Positions 10,506 to 30,749 of a DNA stretch of 64,000 nt are shown here, piece after piece (the stretch's first letter is position 1; the number at the start of each line of letters is the position of its first letter). Source of the DNA: Myxococcota bacterium (lineage in GTDB: Bacteria > Myxococcota_A > SURF-8). A program made the position numbers and the translations under genes. The notes beneath the pieces were generated by a model. It was not told the DNA's origin. It saw only the letters and a list, made by a program, of their open reading frames with translations, and did not search any database. The stretch covers positions 128,001 through 192,000 of the forward strand of contig CAXXQS010000002.1 in assembly GCA_963674735.2 (NCBI GenBank). Reading direction: 5' to 3'.

Positions 10506-10534
10506 CAACAACCCAGATAAAACCGGCACTAAGC
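10506..10534 (-). promoter_or_regulatory. Element motif GCTTAG-N11-TCTGGGTTGTTG, copy 1 (upstream of xis-int)
   Basis: Exact match, 38 nt upstream of ATG 10467. Confidence 0.75.
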
Positions 10535-10877
10535 TGCTTTCTTCTGGTTTTTTCGTTCGGCCACCGAATTCTCGGGAATTCATCAATCGAATTCGGCAAC
10601 CTAATGAACTCTACCCATGTCCTCGATTTTCTGATTCGAGGATTCGATGTTTTTCACGATTTTTATTGGGTGATAGGTCGTAACCCCAGTTTCAAAACCC
10701 CGGTTTCAATTTCATTCACGGTTTTAATATCCATCCGACATCCATCAAAATGGGCGATCAGGAACCGAAAGAGATTTTTATCGAGCGGTTCTGATGTGCT
10801 GACCTGAAGGCTTTCGTCCGTGATTCCGGACGGTTGACCTGGATGTTACCCCTCCTGCAAAGTTTCCAAAGTTTGCG

Positions 10878-10906
10878 GCTTAGTCAGCCAAACTTCTGGG
10901 TTGTTG
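10878..10906 (+). promoter_or_regulatory. Element motif copy 2 (upstream of resolvase)
   Basis: gcttag tcagccaaact tctgggttgttg, 54 nt upstream of ATG 10961. Confidence 0.75.
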
Positions 10907-10960
10907 AAGGGGATAACGTGCAGGTTTTCCCGCGAAACCGCAGGAGGATACCGCTGCCAG

Positions 10961-11611
10961 ATGCCGACGACGAAAAAGAATGAAAAAAAACGAGCTGGCC
11001 TGTATGGAAGGGTCTCCACAGCTAATCATGGTCAGGATGTCGGACTTCAAATCGAAGAATTGGAAACAGTTGCAGAACAAAGAGGCTGGCAGGTGGTCGG
11101 TACCTATATAGATGAAGGGGTGAGCGGTACAAAGCACGACCGGCCCGCCCTCGACCGAATGCTCACGGACGTTCGTGCCGGGAAAATCGACGTGGTGGCG
11201 GTTTGGCGGTTCGACCGGTTCGCCCGCAGTACTCAACACCTCATCCAGGCATTAGAAGAATTCGATTCACTCAATGTCGAATTTTTCAGTCTTCGAGAAC
11301 AAATCGACACATCCACCGCTATGGGTCGGGCAATGTTCACAATCGTTTCAGCTATATCTCAACTAGAACGTAGCTTAATACAGGAGCGCGTTCAGGCTGG
11401 GGTAAATCGTGCGAAAGCTAAAGGAATCCATTGTGGTCGTCCAGTCGTGGACATTGATGTCCGGCCTGCCCTCGCCATGCTTCGGGAGGGGCGACCCCTG
11501 AACGAAGTCGCCAACATTTTAGGCGTTGCCCGGAACACACTCCGACGACGGTTAATCGAGGCAGGAGAATGGCCTGTCCAAAAGCCTAACCAGGAAAAAG
11601 ACCCCGAATAA
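10961..11611 (+). CDS. Serine recombinase (resolvase/invertase family)
   Basis: YGRVST, DEGVSG, DRPAL, VWRFDRFARS, GRP and C-terminal HTH. Confidence 0.95.
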   Translation: MPTTKKNEKKRAGLYGRVSTANHGQDVGLQIEELETVAEQRGWQVVGTYIDEGVSGTKHDRPALDRMLTDVRAGKIDVVAVWRFDRFARSTQHLIQALEEFDSLNVEFFSLREQIDTSTAMGRAMFTIVSAISQLERSLIQERVQAGVNRAKAKGIHCGRPVVDIDVRPALAMLREGRPLNEVANILGVARNTLRRRLIEAGEWPVQKPNQEKDPE

Positions 11612-12154: not shown

Positions 12155-12457
12155 ATGAAACCCCAAAAATCATCCCGACGCCCCCTGGTTACTGCCCAAC
12201 AGGTCGCCGACCATATCGGCGTCCACAAAGCCACCGTCTATCGGATGGTGACTGAAGGCCTCATCCCGTGCGTTCGAGCTGGGAGGGCGATCCGGTTCGA
12301 CCTGGACAGTGTCCTGCATGCGTTGGCGCATAACGAACTGGACGTAGATGTCGCCTGTCGCATCATTGCGAATGATGACAATTTATTTGATTCGTTCATG
12401 GAGAAAGTTCTAACCGAACACGAAAATGCTGCCAAGCAGGCGCAGGAAATGGACTGA
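12155..12457 (+). CDS. HTH_17/excisionase-family DNA-binding protein
   Basis: LVTAQQVADHIGVHKATVYRMVTEGLIPCVRAGRAIRF; AAGGAG RBS. Confidence 0.85.
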   Translation: MKPQKSSRRPLVTAQQVADHIGVHKATVYRMVTEGLIPCVRAGRAIRFDLDSVLHALAHNELDVDVACRIIANDDNLFDSFMEKVLTEHENAAKQAQEMD

Positions 12458-12473
12458 ATCGGAACCCAAAAAG

Positions 12474-12525: not shown

Positions 12526-13890
12526 ATGTCTTTGTCTATTATTATACCCGGGAAATCGGGGAATCCTTCTGAAAAATCACGGTTGGCGTCAGGGTGTTGG
12601 GTTGAGTTGTCCCGTGCGTCAGCATCAACCAGGATGCCGGTCGATTTAACCCAAACCACCCTACCGGATGCGATGCTGGATTACGTTCACAAACACCCGG
12701 TCCGTCCCATTATTGTTGGCGAGGATGAGGATGTCCGGCAGGTTCACCCCGATCCGTATACCGACCTGTGCCGCACCCATTATCAGGCCGACGACAGCAC
12801 GTTGAAACATGCCGTCCGGTACCTTGAGCCAATCATCGACCTGGACTTCGATTCCGGCAAAAATCGGACTGAAAACTTCGAGGCCGCCGCCGATGCCGTT
12901 CGGAAATTGATGGCAGTGTTCGATGAACATCATGTACCGTACCGGGTGTATTTCTCCGGTAGCAAAGGGTTTCACGTTACTCTACCGGGCGTTACGTTCT
13001 GGCCTTACAACCATGAAAACCGACGGTTGGAATACGTCGAACGTGGCAACCACATCCTCAGGCGGATGGTTCGGGCAATCTGCAATGAGGCTGGAGTCCC
13101 GGAAAGCAACCGCAACACCAAAGGCAATGCTGGATGGGACGCCAGCCTGTACGATCTTCGGCGTATGGTGCGGCTTCCAGGTGTGCCACACTCGAAAAGC
13201 ATCATCGTCAGCCAGGAAATCCTCAGTCGGACGGCCACCATTTATAAGACCTGGTTGCCAACAAGCTGGGCAACGTGGTCGATCCGGGAGGTCGTCGAAT
13301 GGTCTACCGTAGTACGCCCTGTACCAGCATGGACCGACATATCCAGAAACAAATGGTTGGAGGAATTATGGGAACGGGCAGTGATTGCCAATGATGCTGA
13401 TGCCAATGACGAACCCGTCATTTATAAACCAGCCCTGATGAAGACCATGACGCCGTCCGCGCCCCACGCCGTAGCCGATTTAAGGGGCTATCCACCCTGC
13501 ATTACGAGCATTCGACAGGGTGACATCACGGTAATGGGATTGAGAAACCGGATCGGCATTGCGGTGTGTTCGTTTCACGCATCCACGGGGGAGACGGTCG
13601 AGGATGCCATTGCCACGATGCGATGCGTTCCCAGTCGCAGCCGGGACTTGGCTGCGGAGACCCGGTCACAATGGAATTCCATCACGACCAAGGCCGGGAA
13701 GCCGAAGGAGAATTACCGGTTCAGCAACCGGTCGTGCCGGACATTCCGGGGGGCGGGTGCGACCTGCACCGACAAGTGTCCCCTGCACACTGAGTTTATC
13801 AAGGGGGAGAAGACATCTAAAAGGAACGTTCCGTATACAAAACCCTTCGATTGGGGTACGGACGACGACACCGATCTGGGGGATGTCTGA
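12526..13890 (+). CDS. Archaeo-eukaryotic primase with PriL-like Cys-rich C-terminal domain
   Basis: DLDFD (motif I), FSGSKGFH (II), D..RMVRLPG (III); PPCI...SC...C...CP. Confidence 0.8.
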   Translation: MSLSIIIPGKSGNPSEKSRLASGCWVELSRASASTRMPVDLTQTTLPDAMLDYVHKHPVRPIIVGEDEDVRQVHPDPYTDLCRTHYQADDSTLKHAVRYLEPIIDLDFDSGKNRTENFEAAADAVRKLMAVFDEHHVPYRVYFSGSKGFHVTLPGVTFWPYNHENRRLEYVERGNHILRRMVRAICNEAGVPESNRNTKGNAGWDASLYDLRRMVRLPGVPHSKSIIVSQEILSRTATIYKTWLPTSWATWSIREVVEWSTVVRPVPAWTDISRNKWLEELWERAVIANDADANDEPVIYKPALMKTMTPSAPHAVADLRGYPPCITSIRQGDITVMGLRNRIGIAVCSFHASTGETVEDAIATMRCVPSRSRDLAAETRSQWNSITTKAGKPKENYRFSNRSCRTFRGAGATCTDKCPLHTEFIKGEKTSKRNVPYTKPFDWGTDDDTDLGDV

Positions 13891-16325
13891 TGGGAATCAT
13901 CTACCGACACGTGTCCTCAGGCACCAAGGACGAACTGCTTTTACTGCCACCGGGGGCCGGAAAAACGTGGAGCTCTGTCCATGCGTTGGTTGCTAAAACC
14001 ACCACCCATGAACGAACGCTTTATGCCGGTGTTTCCCGCGACCTGTGTGAACAAGCTGCGAGGTGGGCGAACAAAAACGGCAACATCATGTCGGAAAAAC
14101 TACCCCGGACGGACAAGAACTGCCGGTGTGCGGGTGACGCCAATGCCCTGTCCGGCAAAAGCTGGTCGGCGGTGGAGTACGTGTGTAAAGGATGTGATAA
14201 CTTCGAGCCGGGCAAGCCTATCGAGTCCAGGTGTGAATGGTGGCGGCAGTGGGACGATCCCGACCATCTGACATGGGCTGTGACCCATCACCACCTGCCG
14301 TCGCAGCTGCCGTTCCGTTACCATAAACCGACTACTTTGGTATTGGACGAGGGAACTGTAGCGGCTTGTCTTGGATGGGCGGGCGGATGCGAGGACGGGT
14401 TCACGGACTTGGATTTGGAAAACCTTGCCCATTCGTTGCCCATCACCGACCCCGGCATCCATAGCTTTACGCTGGGGGATGTCCTGCCCGGTTCCGCCGC
14501 ACGGTTACTGATGCACCTTGCCGGGCGATTGCGGCAATGGGAAAAATCCGGGTCGGCTATGCTGAAGATGTTCCAGCGACTTCAACAAAACCATCACGGA
14601 AAAAACGTCATCGGCCCCGAAGCGGCTGGGTTCCTGCTCGGTCACGATACCGGAACGTCACTGGATAAAACGACGCTGACATTGTTGGAGGCCTTGCTAC
14701 ATGAACGCAGGGAGAACCTTCGAGTAGCTTCCACCATGCCCCGGAACAAACGGCACATCATCCGACCATTACCGGAACCGTCCACGTTCGATGAGGGACC
14801 GATCCCGCCGAACGTCCTGCAACCTCTGGTGAATGCCCTGGCCGCAGCCCGGAAATCCGTCGAACGACATGACGGGAAAGCCGGTGCGGTGCCCATGGCT
14901 CTCGATTTTCACGAGCCGGAGAAACTCAACCCTTTCTTCGCCGTTCGCATCCGAACCTTCACACCTCTAAATGTCCCGAAAAACTGCCGTATCGTGGCTT
15001 TGGACGCCACCGGCAACAAAGAACTGTTCGAGAAATGCGTCGGCAGGCCAGTCGAGGTCATCCGACTGAACGTGCCATTCAAAGGCACGGTCACTCAGGC
15101 TACGGATATGCGGTTGCCGATGGCCACGCTGACCAATGACAAAGGCACCGTGAACCGCTGGGTCGCCAACATCAAACCATACCTGATACGCCTTCAAGAA
15201 ATGCACGGAAAAGTCCTCGTCGTGACTTTCAAACGCCTGGCATTACGGCTTAAATCGGAACTGAAAGCCTGCAAGGGAATGGAATTTCGGTGGTTTTTCG
15301 GTGTCCGAGGTGAAGATTTCTCCGATTATCCCGTCCAGGTGACGATTGGATTCCCGATGTCTCCTCCCGATATGACCTACCTTGACGCCGCAGCCATGTG
15401 CCAGGGTGAGGACGTCGACACGACCTGGGAAAAACAGTGGCGGCCCTACCGGGTCGTCGGGCATGAAAACGACACTGAATCACCCGGTGTCGAGGTGATG
15501 GTGCCGGTCGATCCCCGCCTTAGATCGGTCTACGAGCTGTCCAGTGACCATGAATTCTACCAAGTTGCCTGTTCCAGGAACCGCATCCTTCGATTCAACC
15601 ATCAGTCTGTCGTGATGTCACAAGTGCCATTCCTGCCGGAATACCGAGTGCCGGTTCAGTTGACGACCGTCCAGGAGCTTCTGAACATCGGCCGACAAGA
15701 AGCCGTCTTGTCGGATAAGGTTCATCAACTGGCCGATGCTTTCCTGAACCGTCTGGGATGGGTGTCCAAACGGTTCCTGGAGGCCATTTTGACCGAAAAA
15801 CGGGATTCCGTTGTATTATCCGATGGTTGTGAATTAGCGGCGGGTACACTTATATTATATACTATAAGCCACCCCGCCGGTAATTATTCAGAACCCCATC
15901 ATCAAAAGCTTTTCACCCAACGAGCGGCCTTACGTTCCGGGATGGGTTTTTCGAACGGACTGGAACCCAGACGGTTCCGCGAGGCTTGGGCATCCTGGGA
16001 ATCCGCAACTCGGTGGGCAGGTTCGGATGTCGCCATCAAGGTCAAGGGTAAAGTCGGAAAGCCCTTTCAAGATGTCGTCTACGGCGACTTCAACCTGTGG
16101 CTCTGGGATAATCGAGAACTAGTTTCCCACCCCTACCTGACCGTCATGATGGACGGCACCGTCGTCGATGCCAATACCGTCGACCGTCTTCGGGATGTGA
16201 CGGATGTCCCCGGCAAACGCATCGTAGTGGATGTCAGCCGGGTCCTGCCGGACGGTTCGCTGGACGACACCGTAACATTCCGGCAATTCCGGCAAAGTCC
16301 TCAACAGCTTTGGGCACTCATTTGA
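13890..16325 (+). CDS. Putative helicase (SF2-like) coupled to the primase
   Basis: PPGAGKT Walker A, LVLDE Walker B, LDATG, QVACSRNR; Cys cluster after motif Ia; TGATG overlap with the primase. Confidence 0.65.
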   Translation: MGIIYRHVSSGTKDELLLLPPGAGKTWSSVHALVAKTTTHERTLYAGVSRDLCEQAARWANKNGNIMSEKLPRTDKNCRCAGDANALSGKSWSAVEYVCKGCDNFEPGKPIESRCEWWRQWDDPDHLTWAVTHHHLPSQLPFRYHKPTTLVLDEGTVAACLGWAGGCEDGFTDLDLENLAHSLPITDPGIHSFTLGDVLPGSAARLLMHLAGRLRQWEKSGSAMLKMFQRLQQNHHGKNVIGPEAAGFLLGHDTGTSLDKTTLTLLEALLHERRENLRVASTMPRNKRHIIRPLPEPSTFDEGPIPPNVLQPLVNALAAARKSVERHDGKAGAVPMALDFHEPEKLNPFFAVRIRTFTPLNVPKNCRIVALDATGNKELFEKCVGRPVEVIRLNVPFKGTVTQATDMRLPMATLTNDKGTVNRWVANIKPYLIRLQEMHGKVLVVTFKRLALRLKSELKACKGMEFRWFFGVRGEDFSDYPVQVTIGFPMSPPDMTYLDAAAMCQGEDVDTTWEKQWRPYRVVGHENDTESPGVEVMVPVDPRLRSVYELSSDHEFYQVACSRNRILRFNHQSVVMSQVPFLPEYRVPVQLTTVQELLNIGRQEAVLSDKVHQLADAFLNRLGWVSKRFLEAILTEKRDSVVLSDGCELAAGTLILYTISHPAGNYSEPHHQKLFTQRAALRSGMGFSNGLEPRRFREAWASWESATRWAGSDVAIKVKGKVGKPFQDVVYGDFNLWLWDNRELVSHPYLTVMMDGTVVDANTVDRLRDVTDVPGKRIVVDVSRVLPDGSLDDTVTFRQFRQSPQQLWALI

Positions 16326-16648
16326 TGGTAGTAACCCATATAAAAATTGCCGCCGTCTTGTCCTGTCAGGGTGTTTATAGCTTTGGCTTTATCTGGATCT
16401 ACATATCCCAACAGTTGGGCTAACAAACGAGCCTCGTTTTCGGTCGGCTTCAGCATAATCATCGACAAGCTGATATAGTGCCAAGGATTATCGATGTAAC
16501 GTTTAGCAAGTATCCCCCGTCTTCCTGGCTTTCTTTCCTCTTCACACCCTTCCAAGAATGCATAAACGCAACCGAGGGCGTATGCTTGGGGGGACTTCTC
16601 GTTTAGTCGTTCATTGATTTTTAGTACCATCTTCTTTCTTGAACTCAT
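16301..16648 (-). CDS. Small protein resembling the Cas8c/Csd1 C-terminal domain (Cas11c-like)
   Basis: LNEKSPQAYALGCVYAFLE ... RY..NP ... LTGQDGGNFYMGYYHQ matches the remembered AY.LGRLFA.LE ... L...QG.F..GYYHQ pattern; AAAGGAGG RBS. Confidence 0.6.
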   Translation of the reverse strand: MSSRKKMVLKINERLNEKSPQAYALGCVYAFLEGCEEERKPGRRGILAKRYIDNPWHYISLSMIMLKPTENEARLLAQLLGYVDPDKAKAINTLTGQDGGNFYMGYYHQMSAQSC

Positions 16649-16718
16649 AATGACCTCCTTTGGTTTTGAGTTCGGTCCTGTTTGGAACGAAAACCATTTC
16701 CGTTCCCGTCGGTTATTA

Positions 16719-16750
16719 CCCCGACCGTGGTTAGGTCCACGGTCATGGGG
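16719..16750. terminator. Hairpin between the DnaX-like and Cas11-like genes
   Basis: cccc-gaccgtgg-ttaggt-ccacggtc-atgggg. Confidence 0.5.
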
Positions 16751-16781
16751 GCAATCGTTCTGATTCTTGTGGTCATGTTGG

Positions 16782-17507
16782 TCACCCTACGTTACGAACC
16801 AACAGGAACGCCTCGAGGATCTGCAGGGCATCACGAACCTGTCCCCGAGCGTCGTTCCGGGCCAATTCCATCAGGATGTCGCCAACCTCGGCGTCCGTAA
16901 GTTCGTACCCTTCTTTTTGGGCGATGGTTCGAAGATATCCGCTCATCTGTTCATCCGTCAGGCGCTCGGTACGAACCTGGATGCAGCGCCCTCGAAGCTG
17001 AGCGTCTACATTTCCGATGTTGGCCGTGGTCAGGATGATCGGGTTTGGCGGCTCTTTTTCGAACCGTTCGAGGAGGAAGGTTTGTAAGCCCTTATGACGG
17101 TCGATTTCGTTGATGATATAAGGCCCGTACTGGACGCTCAGGTCGTTATAGACCGTGTCGATGGCGGATGCGCTGCTGGCGAAAGTAGCCGCCGACCGAC
17201 GTTGGATGAGGGTTTTTCCAAACACACCCTGGGATGGCACATCCCAGTTCTGGCATTGCTCACATTGGCCGCAGGGTTCGTAACCGTATTGGCGGTCTCC
17301 ATAACAAACCATGCTATGGGCAGTGATGTTGGCTAAGGTGGTTTTTCCGGTTCCGGAAGGGCCGTGAAGCAGAACGATCCGAGAAGAGCGATTTGCTACG
17401 AGCCGGGTCAGGATGTTTACGGCAACCGAGTTTCCGAACACCTCATCGAAGCGCCTAGGCGTGTGCTTCTGAGGGAAGGGCAGGTTCTGATGATTCTGTA
17501 GTAACAT
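16782..17507 (-). CDS. Truncated DnaX/clamp-loader-like AAA+ protein
   Basis: KHTPRRFDEVFGN, GPSGTGKTT, C-x8-EPCGQCEQC Zn module, GRC, GQVRDALQILE; ends after the lid domain; Walker B reads NEID. Confidence 0.8.
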   Translation of the reverse strand: MLLQNHQNLPFPQKHTPRRFDEVFGNSVAVNILTRLVANRSSRIVLLHGPSGTGKTTLANITAHSMVCYGDRQYGYEPCGQCEQCQNWDVPSQGVFGKTLIQRRSAATFASSASAIDTVYNDLSVQYGPYIINEIDRHKGLQTFLLERFEKEPPNPIILTTANIGNVDAQLRGRCIQVRTERLTDEQMSGYLRTIAQKEGYELTDAEVGDILMELARNDARGQVRDALQILEAFLLVRNVG

Positions 17508-17563
17508 AACATTCTCCGTTCGTTTGCGGGCCCGTGCGGTCATCGCACAGGCCCTGTTGGTGG

Positions 17564-18481
17564 TTAGGCGTTATCGCCAGCGGTATTGGCGTCAGGATTA
17601 TTGCCGATGTTCGTGAACAGGCGTTCCGTGGCGGCCTTGGACTCAGTTTTCGCCTTCTTGATCATGGCCAAAAAGATCTCCGCCTTCTGCTCGATCTGGT
17701 CCAGATCCTCTTGTGGCATGCTGGAATCCACCCCCATGTCGATGGCTTTGTCCAACCACACATGGACCTTTTTCACGGGTCGGGGTGTTTTCTTAGCCTT
17801 CGTGTAGTTCGCGGTGCGCTTCTTGACCTCTTCCGCCATGTCGCGACAGCCCAGCCCTTTTTCAATGGCTAGGTCGAGCAATTGCAACCGCGTTTGAAGG
17901 TCTTTGACCTTGATGAGCTCTTCATGAACACCCAGCGGCACCAGCTCCCGTTTGTCCTCTGGGTACTGGTCCCACGCGAAGTGGACTCGGATGAGTGTCA
18001 TCATGGATTTTTTGCAAAGGCCGACCGTCTTCAGATGGCCCATCGCACAGAACCGGTTGAACGGATGGTTTTTACCCCGCCGTTTTCTATACTTTTCCTC
18101 GCTATTGTCGAAGAACAGCTCGGCGAACAAACCACCCAAGGCCAGTTTTGATTGGAAAGTGTCATTTCCATAGGCATCAATCCCCTTTTTCGCCTTTGCG
18201 AAGGTGATGGTTTCGTCGTTCTGCCCGTCGACCTTTTGTGGGTTGGCAGGAACATCTTCTGGGCTGGAAGCTTCCGTCAAGGCATCGCCGGAAGTTTCTT
18301 TGGTTTGCGCAGGATGTTCCTGGCCTTTTTTGCCATTATCACTTGGCTTGTTCTTCTTGGACTTCACGTCCATCTTCGTCCTCCTTTCTCCTGGTACGCC
18401 AGGCATGGGAGCGCTGGGTACTTGTTCTGCCGGGATCGGTTTGTTCGGGGCTTCAGACTCAGGCATTACTGTGTGTTCCAT
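17564..18481 (-). CDS. Hypothetical protein, possibly DUF1016-N/ParB-HTH-like helical DNA-binding domain
   Basis: 305 aa with GGAGG RBS; disordered N-terminus; VHEELIKVKDLQTRLQLLDLAIEKGLGCRDMAEEV helical pattern. Confidence 0.55.
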   Translation of the reverse strand: MEHTVMPESEAPNKPIPAEQVPSAPMPGVPGERRTKMDVKSKKNKPSDNGKKGQEHPAQTKETSGDALTEASSPEDVPANPQKVDGQNDETITFAKAKKGIDAYGNDTFQSKLALGGLFAELFFDNSEEKYRKRRGKNHPFNRFCAMGHLKTVGLCKKSMMTLIRVHFAWDQYPEDKRELVPLGVHEELIKVKDLQTRLQLLDLAIEKGLGCRDMAEEVKKRTANYTKAKKTPRPVKKVHVWLDKAIDMGVDSSMPQEDLDQIEQKAEIFLAMIKKAKTESKAATERLFTNIGNNPDANTAGDNA

Positions 18482-18497
18482 GTTTACCTCCTACGGT

Positions 18498-19151
18498 TTA
18501 GGAACGTGTTGTGTCGCCACCAATGCGGTGGTCGACGATGTTTTTTAGGTGTTTGTTGGAATCAGCCACCGTGCAGCATTTGATACCGTCGGGTATGTCC
18601 TTCTCATTGTCGGTAGGGACCAGTTGGATGCTGCCGTCGCAGATTGGACAATCGGCCCATCGACCATTGATGAATCGTTCGACGGCAACGATGTCGGACA
18701 TTGGAACCGGTTTATAGCTCGTCAGCCAGCAGTCAGGATGTGCCCCCTTTTTTATGCCGACCTTTTTCAACAACTTGAAAGAGCGCCTTGTGATGCCGCT
18801 TGTTTTTCGGAACTCCTGCATATCGATGAGAGGGTAATCCGCGCCAACTCCCAGGCGATAAAGCCCGAGTTGCCTTTCCATCTCCTGCATGGTGGCATCC
18901 CTGATAACCCCGTTCTTTTGCCGAATACCCTTCGTAGCCGTAGGTTCCCACCGATCCAACGTGGAAAACCACACAGCCGGACGTTCTTGTTCATCTGTGC
19001 GCGCCACCGCTGGAAAGATGGCCTGCAAATCCATGATGCCGAGGAGTTTTGTTCCGAGTGTGTAATGCCATGCCTTAACAGGGGTTCCGTTCTTGGCAAG
19101 TAAAGGTTGAGTACTTGTCGTTGATGTCTTCTTATTGGCGTGGGTTTTCAT
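18498..19151 (-). CDS. Hypothetical protein with ADP-ribosyltransferase-like N-terminus
   Basis: WHYT...GI....I.P.......AVWFS pattern resembles strands 1-2 of H-type ART folds. Confidence 0.45.
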   Translation of the reverse strand: MKTHANKKTSTTSTQPLLAKNGTPVKAWHYTLGTKLLGIMDLQAIFPAVARTDEQERPAVWFSTLDRWEPTATKGIRQKNGVIRDATMQEMERQLGLYRLGVGADYPLIDMQEFRKTSGITRRSFKLLKKVGIKKGAHPDCWLTSYKPVPMSDIVAVERFINGRWADCPICDGSIQLVPTDNEKDIPDGIKCCTVADSNKHLKNIVDHRIGGDTTRS

Positions 19152-19166
19152 CGTTACAGTCCTTTG

Positions 19167-19445
19167 TCAGTGAGATGAATGTTCCGGTTCCACCCCACCA
19201 TTGAGGTGGTCGATACGGTTTGCTAGATGGTCGATGACGGCGATCAGTCGCTCCATGGGAGCGTTTGTTGTCCCGCCTAAAATGGATTCATCGTTCAGGT
19301 AGGCCTGAGCGGCTTGACGCAGAAGCACCGTGATGGTGATTCCGTTCTTTTCGGCAGATTCTTTCAGTTGCCGGTGTAGTTCGGGTTTCATGAAAAGCGA
19401 GATACCAACCTGTTTTTTTCCGTTTTTTGTAGTTCGTTCTTTCAT
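19167..19445 (-). CDS. Ribbon-helix-helix (CopG/Arc-like) regulator
   Basis: VGISLFMKPELHRQLKESAEKNGITITVLLRQAAQAYL. Confidence 0.75.
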   Translation of the reverse strand: MKERTTKNGKKQVGISLFMKPELHRQLKESAEKNGITITVLLRQAAQAYLNDESILGGTTNAPMERLIAVIDHLANRIDHLNGGVEPEHSSH

Positions 19446-19485
19446 CGTGCTATCCTTTCCAAAGTGACGAAGTTTCGTTCGCCGT

Positions 19486-19830
19486 ATACCCCAACAACCC
19501 AGAACTTCTCCGCACTAAGCTGAAAAAATGCTGGAAAATGCTGATTGCGGCATTTTTCCTTTTCCCGACTTGATTTCATGGTCCCAATTCCGGTTGTCAT
19601 CTTCGTTTCCTCCATCCAACGGCGAATTCTTCTCGCCGATACCCCAACAACCCAGAACTTCTCCGCACTAAGCTGAAAAAATGCTGGAAAATGCTGAATG
19701 TGGTGTTTTTCTTTCAGTCGGGTTGATTTCATGGCCCCAATCCCATTTGTCATCATCGTTTTCCTCCATCAAACGGCGAATTCTCCTCGCCATACCCCAA
19801 CAACCCAGATTCCAATGGACCTAAGCCTAA
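19486..19830 (-). repeat. 153-bp tandem repeat (about 2.3 copies); each unit holds the element motif (19492-19520, 19645-19673, 19798-19826)
   Basis: ataccccaacaacccaga recurs at 19486, 19639 and 19792. Confidence 0.92.
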
Positions 19831-22801: not shown

Positions 22802-22815
22802 TTACAGTCTTGCTC

Positions 22816-23583
22816 TTAAAATGGAATATCATTGTCATCCGGCTCTTGATATTCACTGGTAAGTTGAAACTTATCTTGGTTCTGGAGAAGCCACATCGAT
22901 CCAGTATCAGTAAGACAAAGGGCATAATATTCGTTTCCGTTGTAATCAGCGGATTCTTTCTGTTCGATGAATCCTTTCATTAGGAGTGATTTTGCAGCAA
23001 GCTGTCCAGCAATACGGGTGAAGCCTGACCGTTCCATATACTCGATAAATTGGTATTGTGGGACACCTTCAGGATTAAGAAGACTTTCACCCAAATTTAT
23101 CAAGGCAGACGATTCGTGCGGAGTAAGCCCCTCTGTTACTACTGCTGGTGGCAAATTAGAAAGTTTGGCTGATTTTGTTTTTCTTTCTAACAAGGCCTTC
23201 AATCTTTGGACAATACTGTCATTCAAAGCATTAAAATCACTAGATGAATCGGACTCATATGTGATGATGTTTTTATGACGAACATCAAAAGGAAATGAAT
23301 TGGAGCATTCCGTAGAACGAACAAGGCATACTCCTTTACCCTTGGCGTAGGCATAGCCAAGTTCATACCAAACATTTGGGTTGTCTTCGCTTATTTCAGC
23401 AAAACACACGTCCGATTCAGAAATATTCTTTTCAATTGTTTCTATCGGAATGTCAGCTGTTGGGTCTTGATCGACCCGATAAGCCTCCAGTCCAGCACTT
23501 TCGATTGCAGGTTTGAAGATGTCGTTATATCGTTTGTCATATTTTGCACCGTCGAACGGTTGGATAACAAAACATTTCGGCAT
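22816..23583 (-). CDS. Nucleoside 2-deoxyribosyltransferase/TIR-like domain protein with C-terminal wHTH-like region
   Basis: CFVIQPF, YRVD, SDVCFAEISEDNPNVWYELGYAYA, PFDV; AT-rich. Confidence 0.8.
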   Translation of the reverse strand: MPKCFVIQPFDGAKYDKRYNDIFKPAIESAGLEAYRVDQDPTADIPIETIEKNISESDVCFAEISEDNPNVWYELGYAYAKGKGVCLVRSTECSNSFPFDVRHKNIITYESDSSSDFNALNDSIVQRLKALLERKTKSAKLSNLPPAVVTEGLTPHESSALINLGESLLNPEGVPQYQFIEYMERSGFTRIAGQLAAKSLLMKGFIEQKESADYNGNEYYALCLTDTGSMWLLQNQDKFQLTSEYQEPDDNDIPF

Positions 23584-23608
23584 AGTGGTTCCTTTCTGTT
23601 TTTACCCC

Positions 23609-25111
23609 TTACACCCTCTCCTCCAAATCCCCGAGAATCCCCTCGATCTGCTCCAGGGCGGCATTCAGGTCGTCGGCAATCTCCTGGGCCAGGATGTTCG
23701 GGTCGGGGAGGTTGGCCGAGTCTTCCAGGCTCTCATCCCGAAGCCAGAAGATGTCGAGGGACACCTTGTCCCGTGCCAGCAGTTCCTCGTAGGTGTAGGA
23801 CCGCCACCGGCCTTCGGGGTTCGTTTCCGACCAGGTGGCCTTTCGGGTGTTCCGGTTGTCCGGCTTGTAGAGGTCCACGAATTCGGCAAGGTCGGACCGG
23901 ACCAGCCGTCGGGTCTTCAACGTGAAATGTTTGTTCGTTCGGAAGTCGTACACCCACAGCTTCTTCGTCCAGGCCGTTTTCGATCCGGGCTTCCGGTCGA
24001 AGAAGAGGACGTTGGCCTTGACCCCCTGGGCATAGAAAATGCCGGTGGGCAGCCTCAGCAGGGTGTGAACATCACACTCCTGAAGGAGTTTCCGTCTGAC
24101 CGTCTCTCCGGCCCCGCCCTCGAACAGAACGTTATCCGGCACGACGACGGCCGCCCGTCCGTGAATCTCCAGCAGGGACTTAACGTGCTGGACGAAATTG
24201 AGCTGTTTATTGCTGGTGGTCGTCCAGAAGTCGGGCCGGTTGTAGGAGATGGTTTCGGTGCTGGATTTGCCGTCGTCGGCAATGACGGTGATGCTGCTTT
24301 TCTTGCCGAAGGGCGGGTTCGTGATGACGACCTCGTAATGATCCGACGGTTCGTCACGTAGGCTGTCTTCACCACCCTTCAAGGTCGGTTCGTATTCCCC
24401 GTTTATGGGGCCAATGCCGTGGAGGATGTAGTTCATGGCACAGAGCCGGGCCACCCCGTCCACCAGTTCCACTCCGTGCAGGGCTTCATAGGCCAGGTGC
24501 TTCTTCTGGTCCCGGTCGAGCTGGTAGGTTCCGGCCAGATAGTCATGGGCAGCCAGCAGGAAGCCTCCCGTCCCACAGGCCGGGTCGATGATTCGTTCAC
24601 CGGGGGTCGGTTTAACACAGTCCACAATGGCCTGAATCAATGGACGGGGTGTAAAATACTGCCCGGCACCACCCTTCACGTCCTGGGCGTTCCGTTCAAG
24701 AAGTCCCTCGTAGGCATCCCCTTTCACATCGGCATCCATCGAGAGCCACTGCTCTTTGCCGATCAACTCCACCACCAACTGCCGCAGCTTGGCCGGATCC
24801 TGGATTTTGTTCTGGGCCTTACGGAACACCAGCCCCAGCATCCCTTTCTGTTTGCCGAGTTCGGACAGGAGCTTCCGGTAGAAGGCTTCCAGCTTGGTGC
24901 CTTCCATCTGGGGGTTGGCCAGGTCTTCCCACCGGTAGCCTTCAGGGATGGGCTGGTCTTTGCCGGTCAGCCTGGCCCGTTCATCGGCCATCTTGAGGAA
25001 CAGGAGGAAGGTCAACTGTTCGAGGTAGTCCTGATAGGAAAGGCCATCGTCTCGTAGGACGTTGCAGTAGGACCATAGTTTCTGGACGATTCGGGCTGAA
25101 TTATCGGTCAT
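23609..25111 (-). CDS. hsdM: Type I R-M methyltransferase
   Basis: GQYFTPR, DPACGTGGFL, NPPFG, LRLPTGIFY. Confidence 0.96.
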   Translation of the reverse strand: MTDNSARIVQKLWSYCNVLRDDGLSYQDYLEQLTFLLFLKMADERARLTGKDQPIPEGYRWEDLANPQMEGTKLEAFYRKLLSELGKQKGMLGLVFRKAQNKIQDPAKLRQLVVELIGKEQWLSMDADVKGDAYEGLLERNAQDVKGGAGQYFTPRPLIQAIVDCVKPTPGERIIDPACGTGGFLLAAHDYLAGTYQLDRDQKKHLAYEALHGVELVDGVARLCAMNYILHGIGPINGEYEPTLKGGEDSLRDEPSDHYEVVITNPPFGKKSSITVIADDGKSSTETISYNRPDFWTTTSNKQLNFVQHVKSLLEIHGRAAVVVPDNVLFEGGAGETVRRKLLQECDVHTLLRLPTGIFYAQGVKANVLFFDRKPGSKTAWTKKLWVYDFRTNKHFTLKTRRLVRSDLAEFVDLYKPDNRNTRKATWSETNPEGRWRSYTYEELLARDKVSLDIFWLRDESLEDSANLPDPNILAQEIADDLNAALEQIEGILGDLEERV

Positions 25112-25144
25112 GTGATTTTCTGCTTTCAAGAAGAATTACAAAGA

Positions 25145-26098
25145 TCATCTGAGAGGATCCTCAACATTTGTACATGGACGTTCTCCTGACCCAATGTTGT
25201 GTACAACACACCGCATAGCGATATTATTTTCGATACTGTTATAGGTTTGCTTGAAGCCTTTCGGAAATTTAGTGTCCGGCGAATATATAATATTCTCAAA
25301 TTCAACAGACTTAAATACTGCATCTGTGAAGTTGGCACTTGAGATATTTACATCAATAAATTCGCACTCCCGGAATTGGGCACGCGTAAAATCTGCATGA
25401 CCAAAATGACCACCTTGAAATGTTGTTCTAACAATTTTAGCATTTTTATAACTTGATCCCACCGCCGAAGCTTCAATGAACTCCATGTCGGATATTTTAG
25501 CCTGATCAAAGATCGCATCGGATATCCAGCAATTTTCAAGAACTGATTTCTTCCTGCCTGAAAAAGGATGGGAAAATTGTGCACCAGCCATATCTGTTTT
25601 ATAAAATCGTCCGTGCCTAAGCGTAAGGACATCAAAAGTTGCATTTCGAAGATTTGCATTTGAAAAATCTATCGGGATTTCTGTCACAACAACTCCCAGG
25701 TTTGCTCCTTCTAAATTGATACGTGACATGTCAATTATTCTTGATTCTGTCCTGCTCAGACCTTTTTCTGTAGCATTTATTTCTTCCATTTTTATAAAAG
25801 ACTTTACGGCCAATTCGCGGATTCGAATATTGGCCTCTGGCTCACAATTTTGTATTTTGATTTTGTCGCTACAGTCACCCATATTGTATAGTTGAGACAA
25901 GATACGATTGTACGTATCTGTGTTCATGTAGTCTGCTTGCATATTTACCTGTGTCGCTTGCAATTCAACTTCTTTGTAAAATGCCTGCAATTGGTTTGAA
26001 ACAATCCTGTTCTGCCAAAGGAGTAATCCAGCTGCAATACTGGCAATAACGACAGTTAATGAAGCAAAAACAATCTGCCATTTCTCAAAATTCGTCAT
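25145..26098 (-). CDS. Membrane-anchored pentapeptide-repeat protein
   Basis: N-terminal TM helix; ANLRN/ATFDV/ADFTR/AQFRE/ANFTD repeats; AT-rich; ATGA overlap with hsdS. Confidence 0.85.
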   Translation of the reverse strand: MTNFEKWQIVFASLTVVIASIAAGLLLWQNRIVSNQLQAFYKEVELQATQVNMQADYMNTDTYNRILSQLYNMGDCSDKIKIQNCEPEANIRIRELAVKSFIKMEEINATEKGLSRTESRIIDMSRINLEGANLGVVVTEIPIDFSNANLRNATFDVLTLRHGRFYKTDMAGAQFSHPFSGRKKSVLENCWISDAIFDQAKISDMEFIEASAVGSSYKNAKIVRTTFQGGHFGHADFTRAQFRECEFIDVNISSANFTDAVFKSVEFENIIYSPDTKFPKGFKQTYNSIENNIAMRCVVHNIGSGERPCTNVEDPLR

Positions 26099-27597
26099 CC
26101 CTTCCTCCCCCGTTTCCCAGTTTTCTTCCCCGGCTTCATCCCCTCCCGTTCCTGCCGTATTCTCTCCAGCAGCTCCGATGCCGGTTCGTCGTTCGGGTCC
26201 TGGTCGGCCAGCTTGCCTTCAAAGGCCCATTTCAGGATGGCCTGCCGGAGACGGGTGGTTCGTTGGAGGTTGGTTTCGATTGCCAAGTCAACGTCATCAT
26301 TGACCGATAATAGTCTTTCTGTCTCAGATACGATTCGATCTTGTTCTGTAAGGGGAGGAAGTGGAATAGGAGTGTCACCAACATCTTTCTGATTTATACT
26401 GGCTTGGTTAACTGCCCATTTTGCATTTTCAACTAAACGAGCTTTTCCGTCTAGTGATGTTAGGTATGCTTGCACATATTCAGGGCTCACAGTATTAGAA
26501 AGAGTCAACCTCATCATATTGCTTTCAAATACAGAGGGTAGATTTCTTCCTTTTATTACAACACTCTTCCCTAAGTGGCTTGGGCTGTTTACTCTATTCA
26601 CAACAAGGTCACCGATTTCGAGTCCGTACTTAGAAGCCTCATTTTCATCGATGTTGATTTTTTGCAACTCGACCGAAGGTCTGGACCAATCGTTTTGATA
26701 GTCATCGATACGTAAGATTGGGATTCCTTGACCATATTTCGATTTTGGCACGTACACCCCGTTTTGGGGTCCAAATACAATCAACTGCTCCACCGTAGCC
26801 CAGCACCAGCCCTCCGGCAGTTCCGGCAGGCCGTCGGTGTCGGGAGCGGCGGGGGCTTTGTACTTGCCCCTGCCTCCGGCCTCCTCCCACTTCTTCCGTC
26901 GTTCTTTGAGGATTCGTTCCAGCAGCACGGAAGCCGGTTCGTAGTCCCGTCCTTCAGCCTTGGCCAGCTCGGCTTCGGTGGGCACCAGCTGACCCTCGAC
27001 GGCGGATTTCAGCACACTGGCCCGGTAGCGTTTCAGGTTGGCCTTCACCCGTTCCAGGGCTTCCACGGCCTTGTCCAGCCGGGAGAAGTAGTTCTCGATG
27101 GCCTCCACGATCCGGTGCTGTTCGGGGAGGGGAAAAAGAGGTATTTCCATTTCTTCAAGGTGTTGCCGTTTCAGGTTGTTGATGTTAACACCTGCAGCAA
27201 GTTCTGAAACCCGGTTTCGGTATTCCCCTGTTTGAAGAAAAAATCCAATGTATTTCGGATCAGTGTGTTCAGCTAAGGGCCGAATAGCATAGCAGAATGC
27301 CCCGAATGAGCCTTTCCATTCGTGATGTAGTTGAGCAGTTTTTCCAACAACTGCCCTACTACCGCTAGATGCTGCAATAACAATATCTCCCTGTTTCAGA
27401 TACTGTATCTTCGATACAGCTTTCTCAGGAACGTATACAAGATTATCGAAATCAAGGTGCTGATTGATGTTCGTTGCACGAAGAATCGGGACGTATCCTT
27501 TTTCTGGTTGATCAGTTGAATCTTGTTTTTTATAAGTAACCCCTCTTAGGAGATTGGAAATTTCTTTCAGTTGTGCAGGTATTCTTTGGGTATTCAT
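26095..27597 (-). CDS. hsdS: Type I R-M specificity subunit
   Basis: Two TRDs with PLPEQHRIV and PLPPLTEQDRIV conserved regions, LPEGW, EPASELLERI. Confidence 0.95.
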   Translation of the reverse strand: MNTQRIPAQLKEISNLLRGVTYKKQDSTDQPEKGYVPILRATNINQHLDFDNLVYVPEKAVSKIQYLKQGDIVIAASSGSRAVVGKTAQLHHEWKGSFGAFCYAIRPLAEHTDPKYIGFFLQTGEYRNRVSELAAGVNINNLKRQHLEEMEIPLFPLPEQHRIVEAIENYFSRLDKAVEALERVKANLKRYRASVLKSAVEGQLVPTEAELAKAEGRDYEPASVLLERILKERRKKWEEAGGRGKYKAPAAPDTDGLPELPEGWCWATVEQLIVFGPQNGVYVPKSKYGQGIPILRIDDYQNDWSRPSVELQKINIDENEASKYGLEIGDLVVNRVNSPSHLGKSVVIKGRNLPSVFESNMMRLTLSNTVSPEYVQAYLTSLDGKARLVENAKWAVNQASINQKDVGDTPIPLPPLTEQDRIVSETERLLSVNDDVDLAIETNLQRTTRLRQAILKWAFEGKLADQDPNDEPASELLERIRQEREGMKPGKKTGKRGRKG

Positions 27598-30446
27598 GCC
27601 ACCAGTGCCTCATTCAGTTCTTTCAACAACGTTCCCAACTCCTGCCCGAACACCTGAGAGGCCCGACCCAGACCACCGGCCTCGGCAAAGGGGGCATAAT
27701 CGAAGTCGTCGATTTCCATTTCCCAACTGCTGGCAATATGGTCCCGGATCATCGTCAGCCATCGGATCTGCTCGTCCGTAAAGCTCCGGCCTGCCGTCTC
27801 CTGCTGGGCCAGCCAGTTGTCGAACCGTTCCTTTACATGCTCACTCACCGGCTCCAGGACCGGCTCCTGCTTCAAGGCAAACTTCACCAACGACACCAGA
27901 TCCACCAACTGCCTCCGACCACTGGCCCCACGTACACGGGATTTCTCCATCGTCTCGTAGGCTCTCCACAACAAATCCGGTGTCCACGAACGGGGCGGAG
28001 CCTTGATGGCTTCGGACAATTCCTTAATGTCGGTAAAGGTCAACCGTCGTCGGTGAGGCTGGGCATAGAAGAACTGCAAAGCATCAATTTCGTCTTTGTT
28101 CTCGGCCAGGAAGGTTTCAAAATCCTGCACCAGAGCCTTGGCCTTTTCCTTGGCTTCCTCACTCACCCCGGCATACAGGACACTATCGATGCTGACTTCA
28201 TCAATCAGCTGCTCGAACTTCTGCTTCAATTCCAGAATGGTATTCCTGAGCTTCGGATTGGCTGCCAGGGGCTTGGCTGCTTCCTTCTTCAGTTCATCGG
28301 CCACAGCCTTCACCTGGGCCTCGGTCGGCTCGGCATCCTCCGGCAGGTCGTTTGCCTCCCGTGCTTTCTCTATCTGAACATCCGGGTCCACAGCATCCAC
28401 CAAGGCCCGGGCAATCTTCTTCAACGGGACACCCTCGGCTGCATTCCGAATCAGCTCCTGGTCATCCACCGAGAATTTCTTTTCCAGCCGGGACAGACGG
28501 GAGGCTATGGACGACAGCACATCCGGGTCTGTACCACCGGCAGCTACATGATTCAGCAGGGACTTGAGGGATTCGTATTTCTTCCGTTCCAGTGGATGGG
28601 TGTCACTGATTTCCATCTCCAGCTGACCCACACAATCCACAATGACAAAATGGGTCTTGCCGTTCTTGGCATCAGGAGAAACAGCCTTCATATCGGTCTT
28701 GGAAATCACCCGAACTCCACGACCCTTCATCTGCTCGAACAAGCCACGGCTCTTGACCGCCCTCATGAACATGACGATTTCAATGGGCTTGATGTCGGTA
28801 CCCGTGGCAATCATGTCCACCGTCACGGCAATACGAGGCTCGTAGGAGTTACGGAAGTCCTGAATCAGTTCCTTGGGCTTCTTGGCCGTGGTCTTGTAGG
28901 TAATCTTCTGACAGAAGTCGTTACCCCGTGCAAACTCTTCCCGGATGATGTCCACGATGTCTTCGGCATGGCTGTCGTCCTTGGCAAAAATCAAGGTCTT
29001 GGGGACTTCGGTTCTGCCGGGGAAAATCTCCGTGTACAGCTTTTCCTTGAAGGTCCGGACAATCGTCCGTATCTGGTCTTTGGCCACCACCTTCCGGTCG
29101 AGGTCACCGGCTGTGTAATCCACATCCTCGTCAGGGGTTTCCCACCGTTTGGCCCGGGTGGAACGGTCCCGGAAGGTGAGCATCAAATCATCGTTGGCCT
29201 CGATGATGGAGCCCTGTTCGGTGATTTTGGTCTTGATCTGGTAGACATCGAAGTCCACGTTCACCCCGTCTGCCACAGCCTTTTCGTGGTCGTATTCCAT
29301 CACCAGATTCTTGTTGAAGAATCCAAAGGTATGCTTGGCCGGGGTGGCCGTCAGCCCCACCAGGAAGGCATCGAAGTATTCCAGCACCTGCCTCCACAGG
29401 CTGTAAATGGAACGATGGCACTCGTCCACCACAATCAGGTCGAAGAACTCCGGGGGATAGGTTTCGTTGTACACCACCGGCATAGGCTCTTTACGGTCTG
29501 GAACGCCCTCAAACGCACTTTCTTCCTCCAGGGCAGGGTCGAGGTCGGGTTCCCCCTTCAACATCGAATACAGCCGTTGTATGGTCGTTATAGCTACCTT
29601 CGAGGAATCCCTGATGGAGTTCGATTGCAGGAGCTGGACGTTATACAGCTCCGTGAACTTCTTGTTGTCATCCGGTGTCCGAAAGCCCTGGAATTCCTTC
29701 TCGGCCTGCTCACCCAGATTTCTCCTGTCCACCAGGAAAAGTGTCCGTCTGGCTCCACTGAACTTGATGAGCCGGTACAGGGCCGTGATGGCCATGATGG
29801 TCTTGCCGGAACCGGTGGCCATCTGGATCAACGACCGGGGATGGTTCTGTTTCAGACTCCGTTCCAGATTGCCGATGGCCGTGAACTGGTTTGGGAACAG
29901 GAAGGATCGTTCCAGCTCCGGCAGAGTCTGAAGACGTGACCGGAAGGTCGAAGGTTGTGTATCGTCAGCAGCCGTGTGGGAACCGGTGGACTTCACCCAA
30001 TCGTCCAGATTGTCGGCTAACAGCCACTCGGCAAGGGTTTCGGGACGGTGAATCTGGAAGACTTCTCTGGCACGAGGATCGGGGTCAAGACCATTTGTGA
30101 AACGGGTTTCTTCCCCGTTGGCTTGATAAAGAAACGGCAAAGGTCGAACGGGAACGGAAAGGTTTTCAGGGAGTCCCTTGCTGTACTTCTCAGCCTGGCC
30201 TTCGACACCTGACAGGGTGAAGCCTTCCTTCTTGGCTTCCAGAACCCCCACGGCTTTCTGATCTACGAACAGCAGGTAGTCGGCAAAACCGTAACCGGTT
30301 GCCATCACGAATTCCCGAACAGCCACCCCCTGACCGGCATAGAGGTTCATCTCCTTCCAGTCTTGCACAACCCAGCCGGATGCCTCCAACTGGGCATCGA
30401 TCCGAACTCTGGCTTGAGCTTCAGGTTGTTGGGGGTCAGGTGTCAC
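27594..30446 (-). CDS. hsdR: Type I R-M restriction subunit (EcoAI/EcoEI-like)
   Basis: ADYLL..EAK, MATGSGKT, DECHRS, LTATP, QMKGRG. Confidence 0.95.
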   Translation of the reverse strand: MTPDPQQPEAQARVRIDAQLEASGWVVQDWKEMNLYAGQGVAVREFVMATGYGFADYLLFVDQKAVGVLEAKKEGFTLSGVEGQAEKYSKGLPENLSVPVRPLPFLYQANGEETRFTNGLDPDPRAREVFQIHRPETLAEWLLADNLDDWVKSTGSHTAADDTQPSTFRSRLQTLPELERSFLFPNQFTAIGNLERSLKQNHPRSLIQMATGSGKTIMAITALYRLIKFSGARRTLFLVDRRNLGEQAEKEFQGFRTPDDNKKFTELYNVQLLQSNSIRDSSKVAITTIQRLYSMLKGEPDLDPALEEESAFEGVPDRKEPMPVVYNETYPPEFFDLIVVDECHRSIYSLWRQVLEYFDAFLVGLTATPAKHTFGFFNKNLVMEYDHEKAVADGVNVDFDVYQIKTKITEQGSIIEANDDLMLTFRDRSTRAKRWETPDEDVDYTAGDLDRKVVAKDQIRTIVRTFKEKLYTEIFPGRTEVPKTLIFAKDDSHAEDIVDIIREEFARGNDFCQKITYKTTAKKPKELIQDFRNSYEPRIAVTVDMIATGTDIKPIEIVMFMRAVKSRGLFEQMKGRGVRVISKTDMKAVSPDAKNGKTHFVIVDCVGQLEMEISDTHPLERKKYESLKSLLNHVAAGGTDPDVLSSIASRLSRLEKKFSVDDQELIRNAAEGVPLKKIARALVDAVDPDVQIEKAREANDLPEDAEPTEAQVKAVADELKKEAAKPLAANPKLRNTILELKQKFEQLIDEVSIDSVLYAGVSEEAKEKAKALVQDFETFLAENKDEIDALQFFYAQPHRRRLTFTDIKELSEAIKAPPRSWTPDLLWRAYETMEKSRVRGASGRRQLVDLVSLVKFALKQEPVLEPVSEHVKERFDNWLAQQETAGRSFTDEQIRWLTMIRDHIASSWEMEIDDFDYAPFAEAGGLGRASQVFGQELGTLLKELNEALVA

Positions 30447-30720
30447 CGCTACGTTCCCTCCGTTCTGCTGAATTCGAGATTCGGATTCCCGGAGGAAAGG
30501 TCTGGTGTCTGGTCAGGTTGTTTCAGTCAATCCAAGGGCATCCGTATCCAAAATCGTCCATATCAAGTATCGCTAGCATACTGTTTCGGGCGCTCCAGGT
30601 CAAAAGAATTGTGTTGAGATACTGACGGGTTAAGCCTGTGTCAGAATATGTCTCACCTGCTGTCATCCTGCCCATTTTTCGTACTCAATACGCAAAAATC
30701 CACGCCATGAAAATTATTTG

Positions 30721-30749
30721 GCTTAGTTGGGGTTCCGTCTGGGTTGTTG
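30721..30749 (+). promoter_or_regulatory. Element motif copy 6
   Basis: gcttag ttggggttccg tctgggttgttg, 52 nt upstream of ATG 30802. Confidence 0.75.

Follow-up and report, generated by a model that had tools for sequence, protein, structure and literature searches.

A predicted promoter class shared by a family of Myxococcota genomic islands and uncultured phages

The sequence analysed here, a 64,000-nucleotide stretch of a Myxococcota bacterium genome (GCA_963674735.2, contig CAXXQS010000002.1; G000:C2:128001-192000, hereafter the window), carries a 43-kb genomic island, island A, which is bounded by exact 51-bp direct repeats and has a tRNA-Ala gene as its integration target (Table 1). 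The island encodes a tyrosine integrase (int) with a small excisionase (xis)-like gene; a serine recombinase (resolvase) followed by a DNA-binding protein of the HTH_17 family, a primase-polymerase (PrimPol)-like protein and a P-loop protein; an operon headed by a ribbon-helix-helix (RHH) gene; and an operon headed by a 215-aa winged-helix protein, with small genes downstream of it. Each of these four backbone operons is preceded by a bipartite motif, GCTTAG-N11-TCTGGGTTGTTG, the subject of this report. The island cargo includes two methylases, a type I restriction-modification (R-M) system, a TIR-like protein and large surface proteins, and the R-M operon has a sigma-70-like match instead of the motif. 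We find that the core of the motif recurs in a family of related islands and in contigs of uncultured phages, and precedes no host gene.

The initial annotation had described six copies of the motif, with 18 invariant bases and an 11-nt spacer, and all six (6/6) are present without a mismatch and on the strands it gave. No further match appears in the window when up to three mismatches are allowed, and dinucleotide shuffles gave a mean of 0.03 matches, with six or more in 0/100. Every copy points toward a downstream gene, and the copies head the xis-int, resolvase, RHH and winged-helix operons, as first proposed. From the end of the 12-mer TCTGGGTTGTTG, the likely start codon lies 38 nt away in the xis-like gene, 54 nt in the resolvase gene, 46 nt in the RHH gene and 52 nt in the winged-helix gene, which bears out the annotated range of 38–54 nt; an earlier ATG, 39 nt from the 12-mer, is possible in the winged-helix gene. 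A Shine-Dalgarno (SD)-like stretch precedes each of the four. Copies 3–5 lie within one 153-bp tandem repeat, each unit of which combines the motif with a short hairpin, an SD and an ATG, and so they are not independent copies; the assemblies of runs X1 and X3 break at this repeat. A 104-aa open reading frame (ORF) stays in frame across two of the repeats, 153 nt being 51 codons, and overlaps the start of the RHH gene (ATGA); the duplication probably produced it as an artefact. Hairpins in the 5' leaders are not significant (z -0.2 to -2.1).

Table 1 Features of island A and of related loci. Positions without a prefix are those of the window; prefixed positions refer to other contigs or loci.
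Feature	Position	Strand	Remarks
tRNA-Ala(CGC), island integration target	8902..8977	+	ARAGORN
attL, 51-bp direct repeat over 3' part of tRNA-Ala	8929..8979	.	exact repeat of 52051-52101
attR, second 51-bp repeat copy, right island end	52051..52101	.	exact repeat
Sequences with core AATATTGACAAACTTGC, inside both att ends	9025-9052, 51882-51927		17–46 bp; candidate arm sites or element ends
Same core near one end of island B	G000:C1:580619-580664		
Tyrosine integrase	9066..10196	-	Pfam Phage_integrase, E 5.8e-19
Small xis-like gene, first behind copy 1	10219..10467	-	GGAGG then ATG; weak helix-turn-helix (HTH) PHROG match
Motif copy 1	10506..10534	-	xis-int operon
Motif copy 2	10878..10906	+	resolvase, HTH_17, PrimPol, P-loop operon
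Serine recombinase (resolvase)	10961..11611	+	Pfam Resolvase, E 1e-47
HTH_17 / excisionase-family DNA-binding protein	12155..12457	+	domain and PHROG searches
Primase-polymerase-like protein	12526..13890	+	PHROG primase E 1.8e-14; weak PrimPol/PriS matches
P-loop protein, 824 aa	13851..16325	+	Walker A GAGKT; no Pfam family; probable helicase
Operon behind copies 3–5	16301..19445	-	RHH, 217 aa, 305 aa, DnaX-like AAA, 115 aa
DnaX-like AAA gene	16782-17543	-	in RHH operon
RHH gene	19167-19445	-	first gene behind copies 3–5
104-aa ORF	19442-19756	-	probable duplication artefact
153-bp tandem repeat with copies 3–5	19479..19809	.	TRF; 2.2 copies, 88% match
Motif copy 3	19492..19520	-	proximal to RHH gene
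Motif copy 4	19645..19673	-	upstream of RHH operon
Motif copy 5	19798..19826	-	upstream of RHH operon
Cargo without motif	20876..30446	-	type I R-M (hsdR, hsdS, pentapeptide protein, hsdM), TIR-like, ParB-methylase; domain searches
Compared R-M regions	23609-30446 vs G000:C1:584249-591291		
Sigma-70-like match upstream of hsdR	30575..30603	-	TTGACC-17-TATGCT; 9/12 positions, consensus match only
Motif copy 6	30721..30749	+	winged-helix operon
Inverted partial 12-mer	30776-30783; G000:C1 ~583.91-583.93 kb		
Winged-helix protein, 215 aa, PF22977	30802..31449	+	coiled coil and MarR-like winged helix; in every island of the family
Acidic protein, 71 aa	31462..31677	+	always adjoins winged-helix gene
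Cys-rich secreted protein, 305 aa, shared with phage	32901-33818		
FGE-sulfatase-domain protein and its copy	38274-39101; G000:C1:617355-618194		90% identical
Variant motif copies, island B	C1:583969(-), 597183(+), 603809(-), 604027(+)		genome mismatch scan
RVT_1 region, island B	L013:8984-11311 = G000:C1:598984-601311	-	RVT_1 E 3e-15
Duplicated sites in G024	G024:C2:167414 / 176995 and 172372 / 181953		
Phage RNA sites	L066:746-820; L075:2249-2516; L062:3593-3736		HDV-like ribozyme / partial tmRNA
Insertion-bearing genes of contig C	L023:5049-9656, L023:14816-17455, L024:1703-3115, L024:5629-9216		intein/homing-endonuclease insertions

Across the whole genome (5,264,779 bp), the full motif and the 12-mer alone each occur six times, always in island A. 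The earlier statement that no copy lies outside the island holds for the exact sequence; it does not extend to a variant with two mismatches (GG to CA), GCTTAG-N11-TCTCAGTTGTTG, which occurs four times in a second island on another contig, island B (G000:C1, ~584–604 kb), where the chance expectation for such matches in the genome is 0.21. The four variant copies occupy positions equivalent to those in island A: one each before the winged-helix gene, the resolvase gene and the xis-integrase pair, in which the counterpart of the xis-like gene encodes an HTH_17 protein, and one before an unrelated two-gene operon beside the methylase. Products encoded by both islands include the winged-helix protein, at 47% identity, and the 71-aa protein, at 49%, along with the resolvase (71%), methylases (65–75%) and HsdR/HsdM (97%). 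The resolvase operon of island B has a 377-aa protein and a 775-aa protein with a reverse-transcriptase domain (RVT_1) in place of the PrimPol/helicase module.

A winged-helix profile found matches in 40 of 401 genomes sampled from the phylum, and related islands exist in other genomes. All exact-core matches in G018, of the same order (6/6), and in G024, of the same family (4/4), lie inside islands with a winged-helix gene, and a reversed-pattern control gave 0 matches in both. GCTTAG and GGGTTGTTG are kept in these copies and positions 18–20 vary (GCC, TTC, TCC, GAT, GCT). The free variation there in the G018 islands and the use of CG or GG by phages weaken the idea that GG versus CA marks element-specific readers. 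G030 has a diverged form, GCTCAT-N11-TCTGGGTCGTTG, and one short metagenome contig (L094) combines an A-type winged-helix gene (60% identity) with an A-type motif. Seven islands were compared, namely A, B, three from G018 and two from G024, and they have just two genes in common: the winged-helix gene and, beside it, the gene for a 71–78-aa acidic protein.

Several further features of these islands are recorded here. Island b of G018 also has two tandem motif copies upstream of its RHH homologue, and the island region of G024 is tandemly duplicated; the period is 9,581 bp, and the two units are identical in their motif copies and in the winged-helix gene. The hsdR and hsdM genes are 95–98% identical among islands A, B and those of G018 (L138-L141), whereas hsdS is just 44–47% identical (77% over one half in G018b), a pattern resembling an exchange of specificity subunits on a common type I R-M scaffold. 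A 17–46-bp sequence with the core AATATTGACAAACTTGC lies immediately inside each att end of island A and recurs close to one end of island B, and these sites are candidates for integrase arm sites or for the ends of the element. An FGE-sulfatase-domain protein in the cargo of island A is 90% identical to a copy located ~12 kb beyond island B.

The same core also occurs in phage DNA. A relaxed-pattern scan of IMG/VR found one 54.6-kb viral contig, contig C (G401, GC 41%, 10% complete according to CheckV), with six copies, one of which has one mismatch. Its gene products include tail and virion proteins, a DNA polymerase A that contains an intein, helicases of the DnaB-like and SNF2 types, a primase zinc ribbon and numerous methylases. 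A metagenome scan found 46 motif loci; 12 single matches were set aside as chance-like because they lack the shared flanks, and the remaining loci, in AT-rich phage contigs, provide 41 unique phage-type copies. The phage consensus, ttTG-GCTTAG-TTTcc...AcT-TCTCGGTTGTTG-tAGTAaga (41 unique copies), can be set beside that of the islands, TTTccG-GCTTAG-Tttcc..aa.t-TCtGGGTTGTTG-ggGTa (20 unique copies). A co-oriented ORF starts within 200 nt of 36 of 42 copies (median 46.5 nt), a group that includes the island-like L094, and an SD-like stretch follows 34/42 copies versus 2/12 of the chance-like singles. The genes behind phage copies include those for an NAD-dependent ligase, PARP-like, RtcB, RNA ligase, NAD synthase, NMNAT-like, macro, CinA and HU proteins. 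A tRNA-Thr gene begins 19 nt after one copy, a position that speaks against an element acting in translation alone. The motif is a signal common to an island family and to phages, and the initial view of it as private to one element is not upheld.

The motif-bearing phage loci also carry tRNA arrays and tmRNA genes. The contig C protein resembling DnaB shares 50.6% identity with its counterpart in a 485-kb uncultured phage record, from which we infer that the motif-bearing phages are very large. Two proteins are common to the islands and contig C: a methylase, with 39% identity over 437 aa, and a Cys-rich secreted protein, with 30% identity (E 8e-25). The latter, a 305-aa protein in island A, is not a regulator. 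Exact 18-base matches in 596 Gb of species genomes amount to nine scattered singles in unrelated taxa, which we treat as chance since the estimated chance number is ~17. The promoter stretch had no match among GenBank phages, a literature search for the 8-mer as a phage promoter returned primer matches only, and a search for accession LR745208 found nothing. Two side observations concern phage DNA: phage loci carry an HDV (hepatitis delta virus)-like ribozyme match beside a tRNA, barely over threshold (44.3 vs 44 bits), as well as partial tmRNA genes, and contig C has intein/homing-endonuclease insertions in its DNA polymerase A, C5 methylase, N6/N4 methylase and SNF2 helicase genes.

Alignment of the copies defines the invariant core as GCTTAG-N16-GTTGTTG, with a spacing fixed in 61/61 unique copies and with G-T-A conserved at +3 to +5 after it. 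All 10 matches to this core in the genome fall in islands A and B; spacings of N15 or N17 give 0 matches, and the shorter GCTTAG-N16-GTTG gives just 14, 10 of them in islands. A whole-genome scan found that no host gene, sigma genes included, carries the core. The motif has the geometry of a -35/-10 pair (GCTTAG, 17 bp, TTGTTG) and stands upstream of and co-oriented with genes. Host tRNA promoters are of the canonical TTGACA/TAnnnT type (TTTTTTCTTGACA-N17-TAnnnT), and because the motif, like them, follows a T-tract, GCTTAG would take the -35 and TTGTTG, 17 bp on, the -10 position. Three phage copies have an ATG just 17–19 nt after the 12-mer and an SD starting ~5 nt after it, so close that, if the motif is not transcribed, the start would fall right after the 12-mer; it is expected ~5–7 nt downstream.

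The motif does not have the sequence features of sigma-70, sigma-54 or ECF promoters. Extracytoplasmic function (ECF) sigma factors typically require strict spacing and recognize AAC at -35 and CGT at -10; the consensus boxes here are GCTTAG and GGTTGTTG, and the sigma-type pair initially proposed is upheld in geometry and spacing but not in box sequence. Sigma-54 promoters have GG and GC dinucleotides 10 bp apart (TGGCAC-N5-TTGC), and inspection of the aligned copies showed that TTGC is not at the required distance after TGG. No sigma-70-like promoter (TTGACA-N16-18-TATAAT) was found on the motif strand near the copies. A promoter for a single-subunit (T7-like) RNA polymerase would be an unbroken conserved block of ~17–23 bp that ends at +1, paired with a gene for the phage polymerase; positions 17–34 do form a contiguous conserved block, with an extra GCTTAG box that would be atypical; a PF00940 search gave no match in contig C or LR745208, nor in control genomes. 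The motif is very probably a promoter class for a non-housekeeping holoenzyme.

A very improbable alternative is that the motif is no promoter but an RNA element of transcribed 5' leaders, an operator bound by a repressor or a hot spot at which recombination shuffles gene cassettes. GCTTAG followed by TTT reads TAGTTT, a TAnnnT match from which a start could fall inside the spacer, yet no -35 box is conserved at the right distance from it in the island copies. Repeated promoter-like cassettes mediate gene shuffling in T4-type phages, and the copies at 19.5–19.8 kb are a tandem duplication. The invariant positions of the consensus nevertheless have neither the dyad nor the direct-repeat symmetry of an RHH- or MarR-type repressor operator, the T-tract position parallels that of host -35 boxes, and the strict co-orientation with genes and the copy directly before a tRNA gene fit a promoter best.

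Geometry and strict spacing would suit a sigma-70-family factor of the host, an alternative (ECF-type) sigma that islands and phages exploit. The host has 13 Sigma70_r2 genes, and Staphylococcus aureus sigma-H provides a precedent (PMC2869324). Against such a reader, core matches lie exclusively in islands (10/10 in G000, 6/6 in G018, 4/4 in G024), no host sigma gene lies in or beside an island, the boxes differ from the ECF consensus, and no sigma gene carries the core although ECF sigmas normally autoregulate. The host sigma factor suggested by the initial annotation is improbable because no host gene has even the relaxed core.

The islands themselves encode no sigma domain, in line with the initial annotation: neither island A nor island B has a Sigma70_r2, r4_2 or r4 domain. 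The 824-aa protein of island A had been considered as an RNA polymerase and was rejected, its translation being that of a P-loop protein. The winged-helix protein is a candidate activator. A model built with 60 sequences reached a pLDDT (predicted local distance difference test) of 93.5, compared with 65 for an earlier model, and consists of an antiparallel coiled coil and a MarR-like winged helix; residues 100–200 are MarR-like with VIA Z 9.2 and rmsd 2.0 over 73 aa, at a Foldseek E of only 0.1. Elsewhere the PF22977 domain is the N-terminal module of ~720–780-aa proteins with two AAA domains, a form found in many genomes of the phylum (L112, L114 and others), and the islands have the stand-alone 215-aa form. 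Since the domain is part of double-AAA ATPases elsewhere, the protein need not be a transcription factor. Part of the 12-mer recurs in inverted orientation in the leader of its gene and differs between the variants, reading AACAACC in island A but AACAACTGA in island B; it could be a second binding site or homologous leader sequence. In G018 the complementarity is just 6 nt.

These properties raise the possibility, unlikely on balance, of a self-contained circuit in which the motif is bound by the winged-helix protein, possibly together with the 71-aa acidic protein, and host RNA polymerase is thereby recruited; the phages would then carry an analogous activator in their unsampled parts. With the winged-helix gene behind a motif copy, such a circuit would be a positive-feedback switch for excision and replication. 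In its favor are the two genes that alone are common to the seven islands, with the motif 40–75 nt upstream of each, the confident MarR-like model and the inverted partial box that tracks the variant. Salmonella genomic island 1 (SGI1) also encodes its own copy of its helper's activator (PMC8373056). The motif, however, is asymmetric, has promoter geometry and lacks the sigma-70 -10 box that an ordinary activator would need, whereas dyads are the usual targets of MarR-type dimers. The box core is unchanged in G024 even though the protein there has only 26% identity to its island A homologue, and the winged-helix family was not found in contig C, the sampled phage loci or IMG/VR.

We favor a different reader, with a probability of about 0.42 for the explanation as a whole. 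The motif would be the core of a separate promoter class that the host housekeeping sigma does not read. In island A it would drive the backbone, that is the xis-int, resolvase/PrimPol/helicase, RHH and winged-helix operons. Sister islands would share this promoter and a group of large uncultured phages would employ it at many sites, while no chromosomal gene of the host would use it. Such a phage would supply, in trans, a sigma-type factor or an activator that reads it together with host core RNA polymerase, so that infection would switch on island excision and replication, as in a phage-inducible island (satellite or sentinel). The same core stands in phage contigs and before the xis-int and resolvase/replication genes of islands A and B, and this is the shared signal of helper-activated islands. 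A phage-supplied reader is a tentative assignment on its own, and it is rather unlikely that the islands are parasites or sentinels of very large phages, with promoter mimicry tying their excision, recombination and replication genes to the transcription factor of the phage and keeping them silent until that phage infects. The helper-phage switch of the initial annotation gains real support, since the motif is a repeated gene-proximal element in phage contigs; its reader was not found in the sampled phage DNA.

Island A has the gene set of a satellite (int, xis-like gene, HTH_17, PrimPol and P-loop protein), and its 43 kb exceed the 7–20 kb or so of P4-like satellites and phage-inducible chromosomal islands, which carry genes for packaging or capsid redirection. 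A terminase-small-subunit PHROG on the HTH protein (E 1e-7) is the lone packaging-type match. The PrimPol has three relatives at 59–74% identity and one weak match; none was found in viral and metagenome contigs, and 400 phylum genomes plus 10 class genomes gave only one weak match.

Several observations weigh against a phage-supplied reader. No sigma factor, RNA polymerase or other candidate reader was found in the ~200 kb of sampled, incomplete phage DNA, and the motif is not in the related 485-kb phage (9 matches at up to 2 mismatches vs 13 for the reversed control). In favor of such a reader, that phage has two ORFs with Sigma70_r4 matches above the cut-off and no match to the PF00623 RNA polymerase; its sigma-like proteins, however, have no relatives in the motif-bearing phage loci or the islands. 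We found no spacer-like matches tying the phages to this host, and their GC content is 41% versus 55%. The 43-kb island has no recognised capsid or packaging family, unlike known satellites, and an int gene dependent only on a phage factor would make integration in a new, phage-free cell hard to explain. Because every island keeps the winged-helix gene right behind a motif copy, a self-contained circuit is possible.

The original observation is real and much broader than first reported. If a phage-supplied factor does read the motif, a short, scannable DNA signal links islands with R-M and defence-like cargo to a specific group of large uncultured phages, which gives the phages a link to a host and the islands a testable trigger. 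A new promoter specificity would be defined as well, and combining phage or island proteins with the core RNA polymerase of the host could reveal what reads it. Should the islands be parasites or sentinels, no island family would have been linked to huge phages before them, and their sigma-type promoter specificity, GCTTAG-N17-TTGTTG, would be new. Even if the island winged-helix protein proves to be the reader, the motif identifies the regulon of an island family not described before. The link between islands and large phages through one promoter class appears to be new, and the kind of system is already known.

Phage sigma factors with their own promoter classes include SPO1 gp28 and gp33/34 and T4 gp55. 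Like theirs, the boxes here are highly conserved, non-host -35/-10-type elements repeated through phage DNA and absent from host genes; the box sequences differ, and no sigma gene is linked to the motif. ECF promoters share the two short boxes and the rigid spacing of ~16–17 bp, and differ in having AAC and CGT types in place of GCTTAG and GTTGTTG and a sigma/anti-sigma pair nearby. P2 and P4 late promoters are activated by Ogr/Delta, and P2 and P4 transactivate each other. In that pair, as proposed here, a single promoter class serves both satellite and helper phage, so that either can turn on the other, although their sites are dyad-symmetric activator sites upstream of sigma-70 promoters, and the island here, compared with P4, is 43 kb long without recognised capsid-related genes.

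In S. aureus, sigma-H modulates how prophages integrate and excise, and the int genes of prophages have a conserved region upstream of them (PMC2869324). The likeness is a conserved untranslated region upstream of the recombination genes of mobile elements; the difference is that sigma-H is a host factor, and here no host gene has the motif. A parallel in arrangement is that of IncC plasmids and SGI1, which share AcaCD-responsive promoters (PMC4605294, PMC5058578, PMC8373056). The helper there is a conjugative plasmid and the reader a known FlhDC-type activator that works with host sigma-70, whereas here a phage group is the proposed partner and a predicted factor would read boxes that lie in -35/-10 positions. 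In the plasmid system, island and helper carry the same signal before xis and backbone genes, the island may also hold a factor of its own, and arrival of the helper triggers excision.

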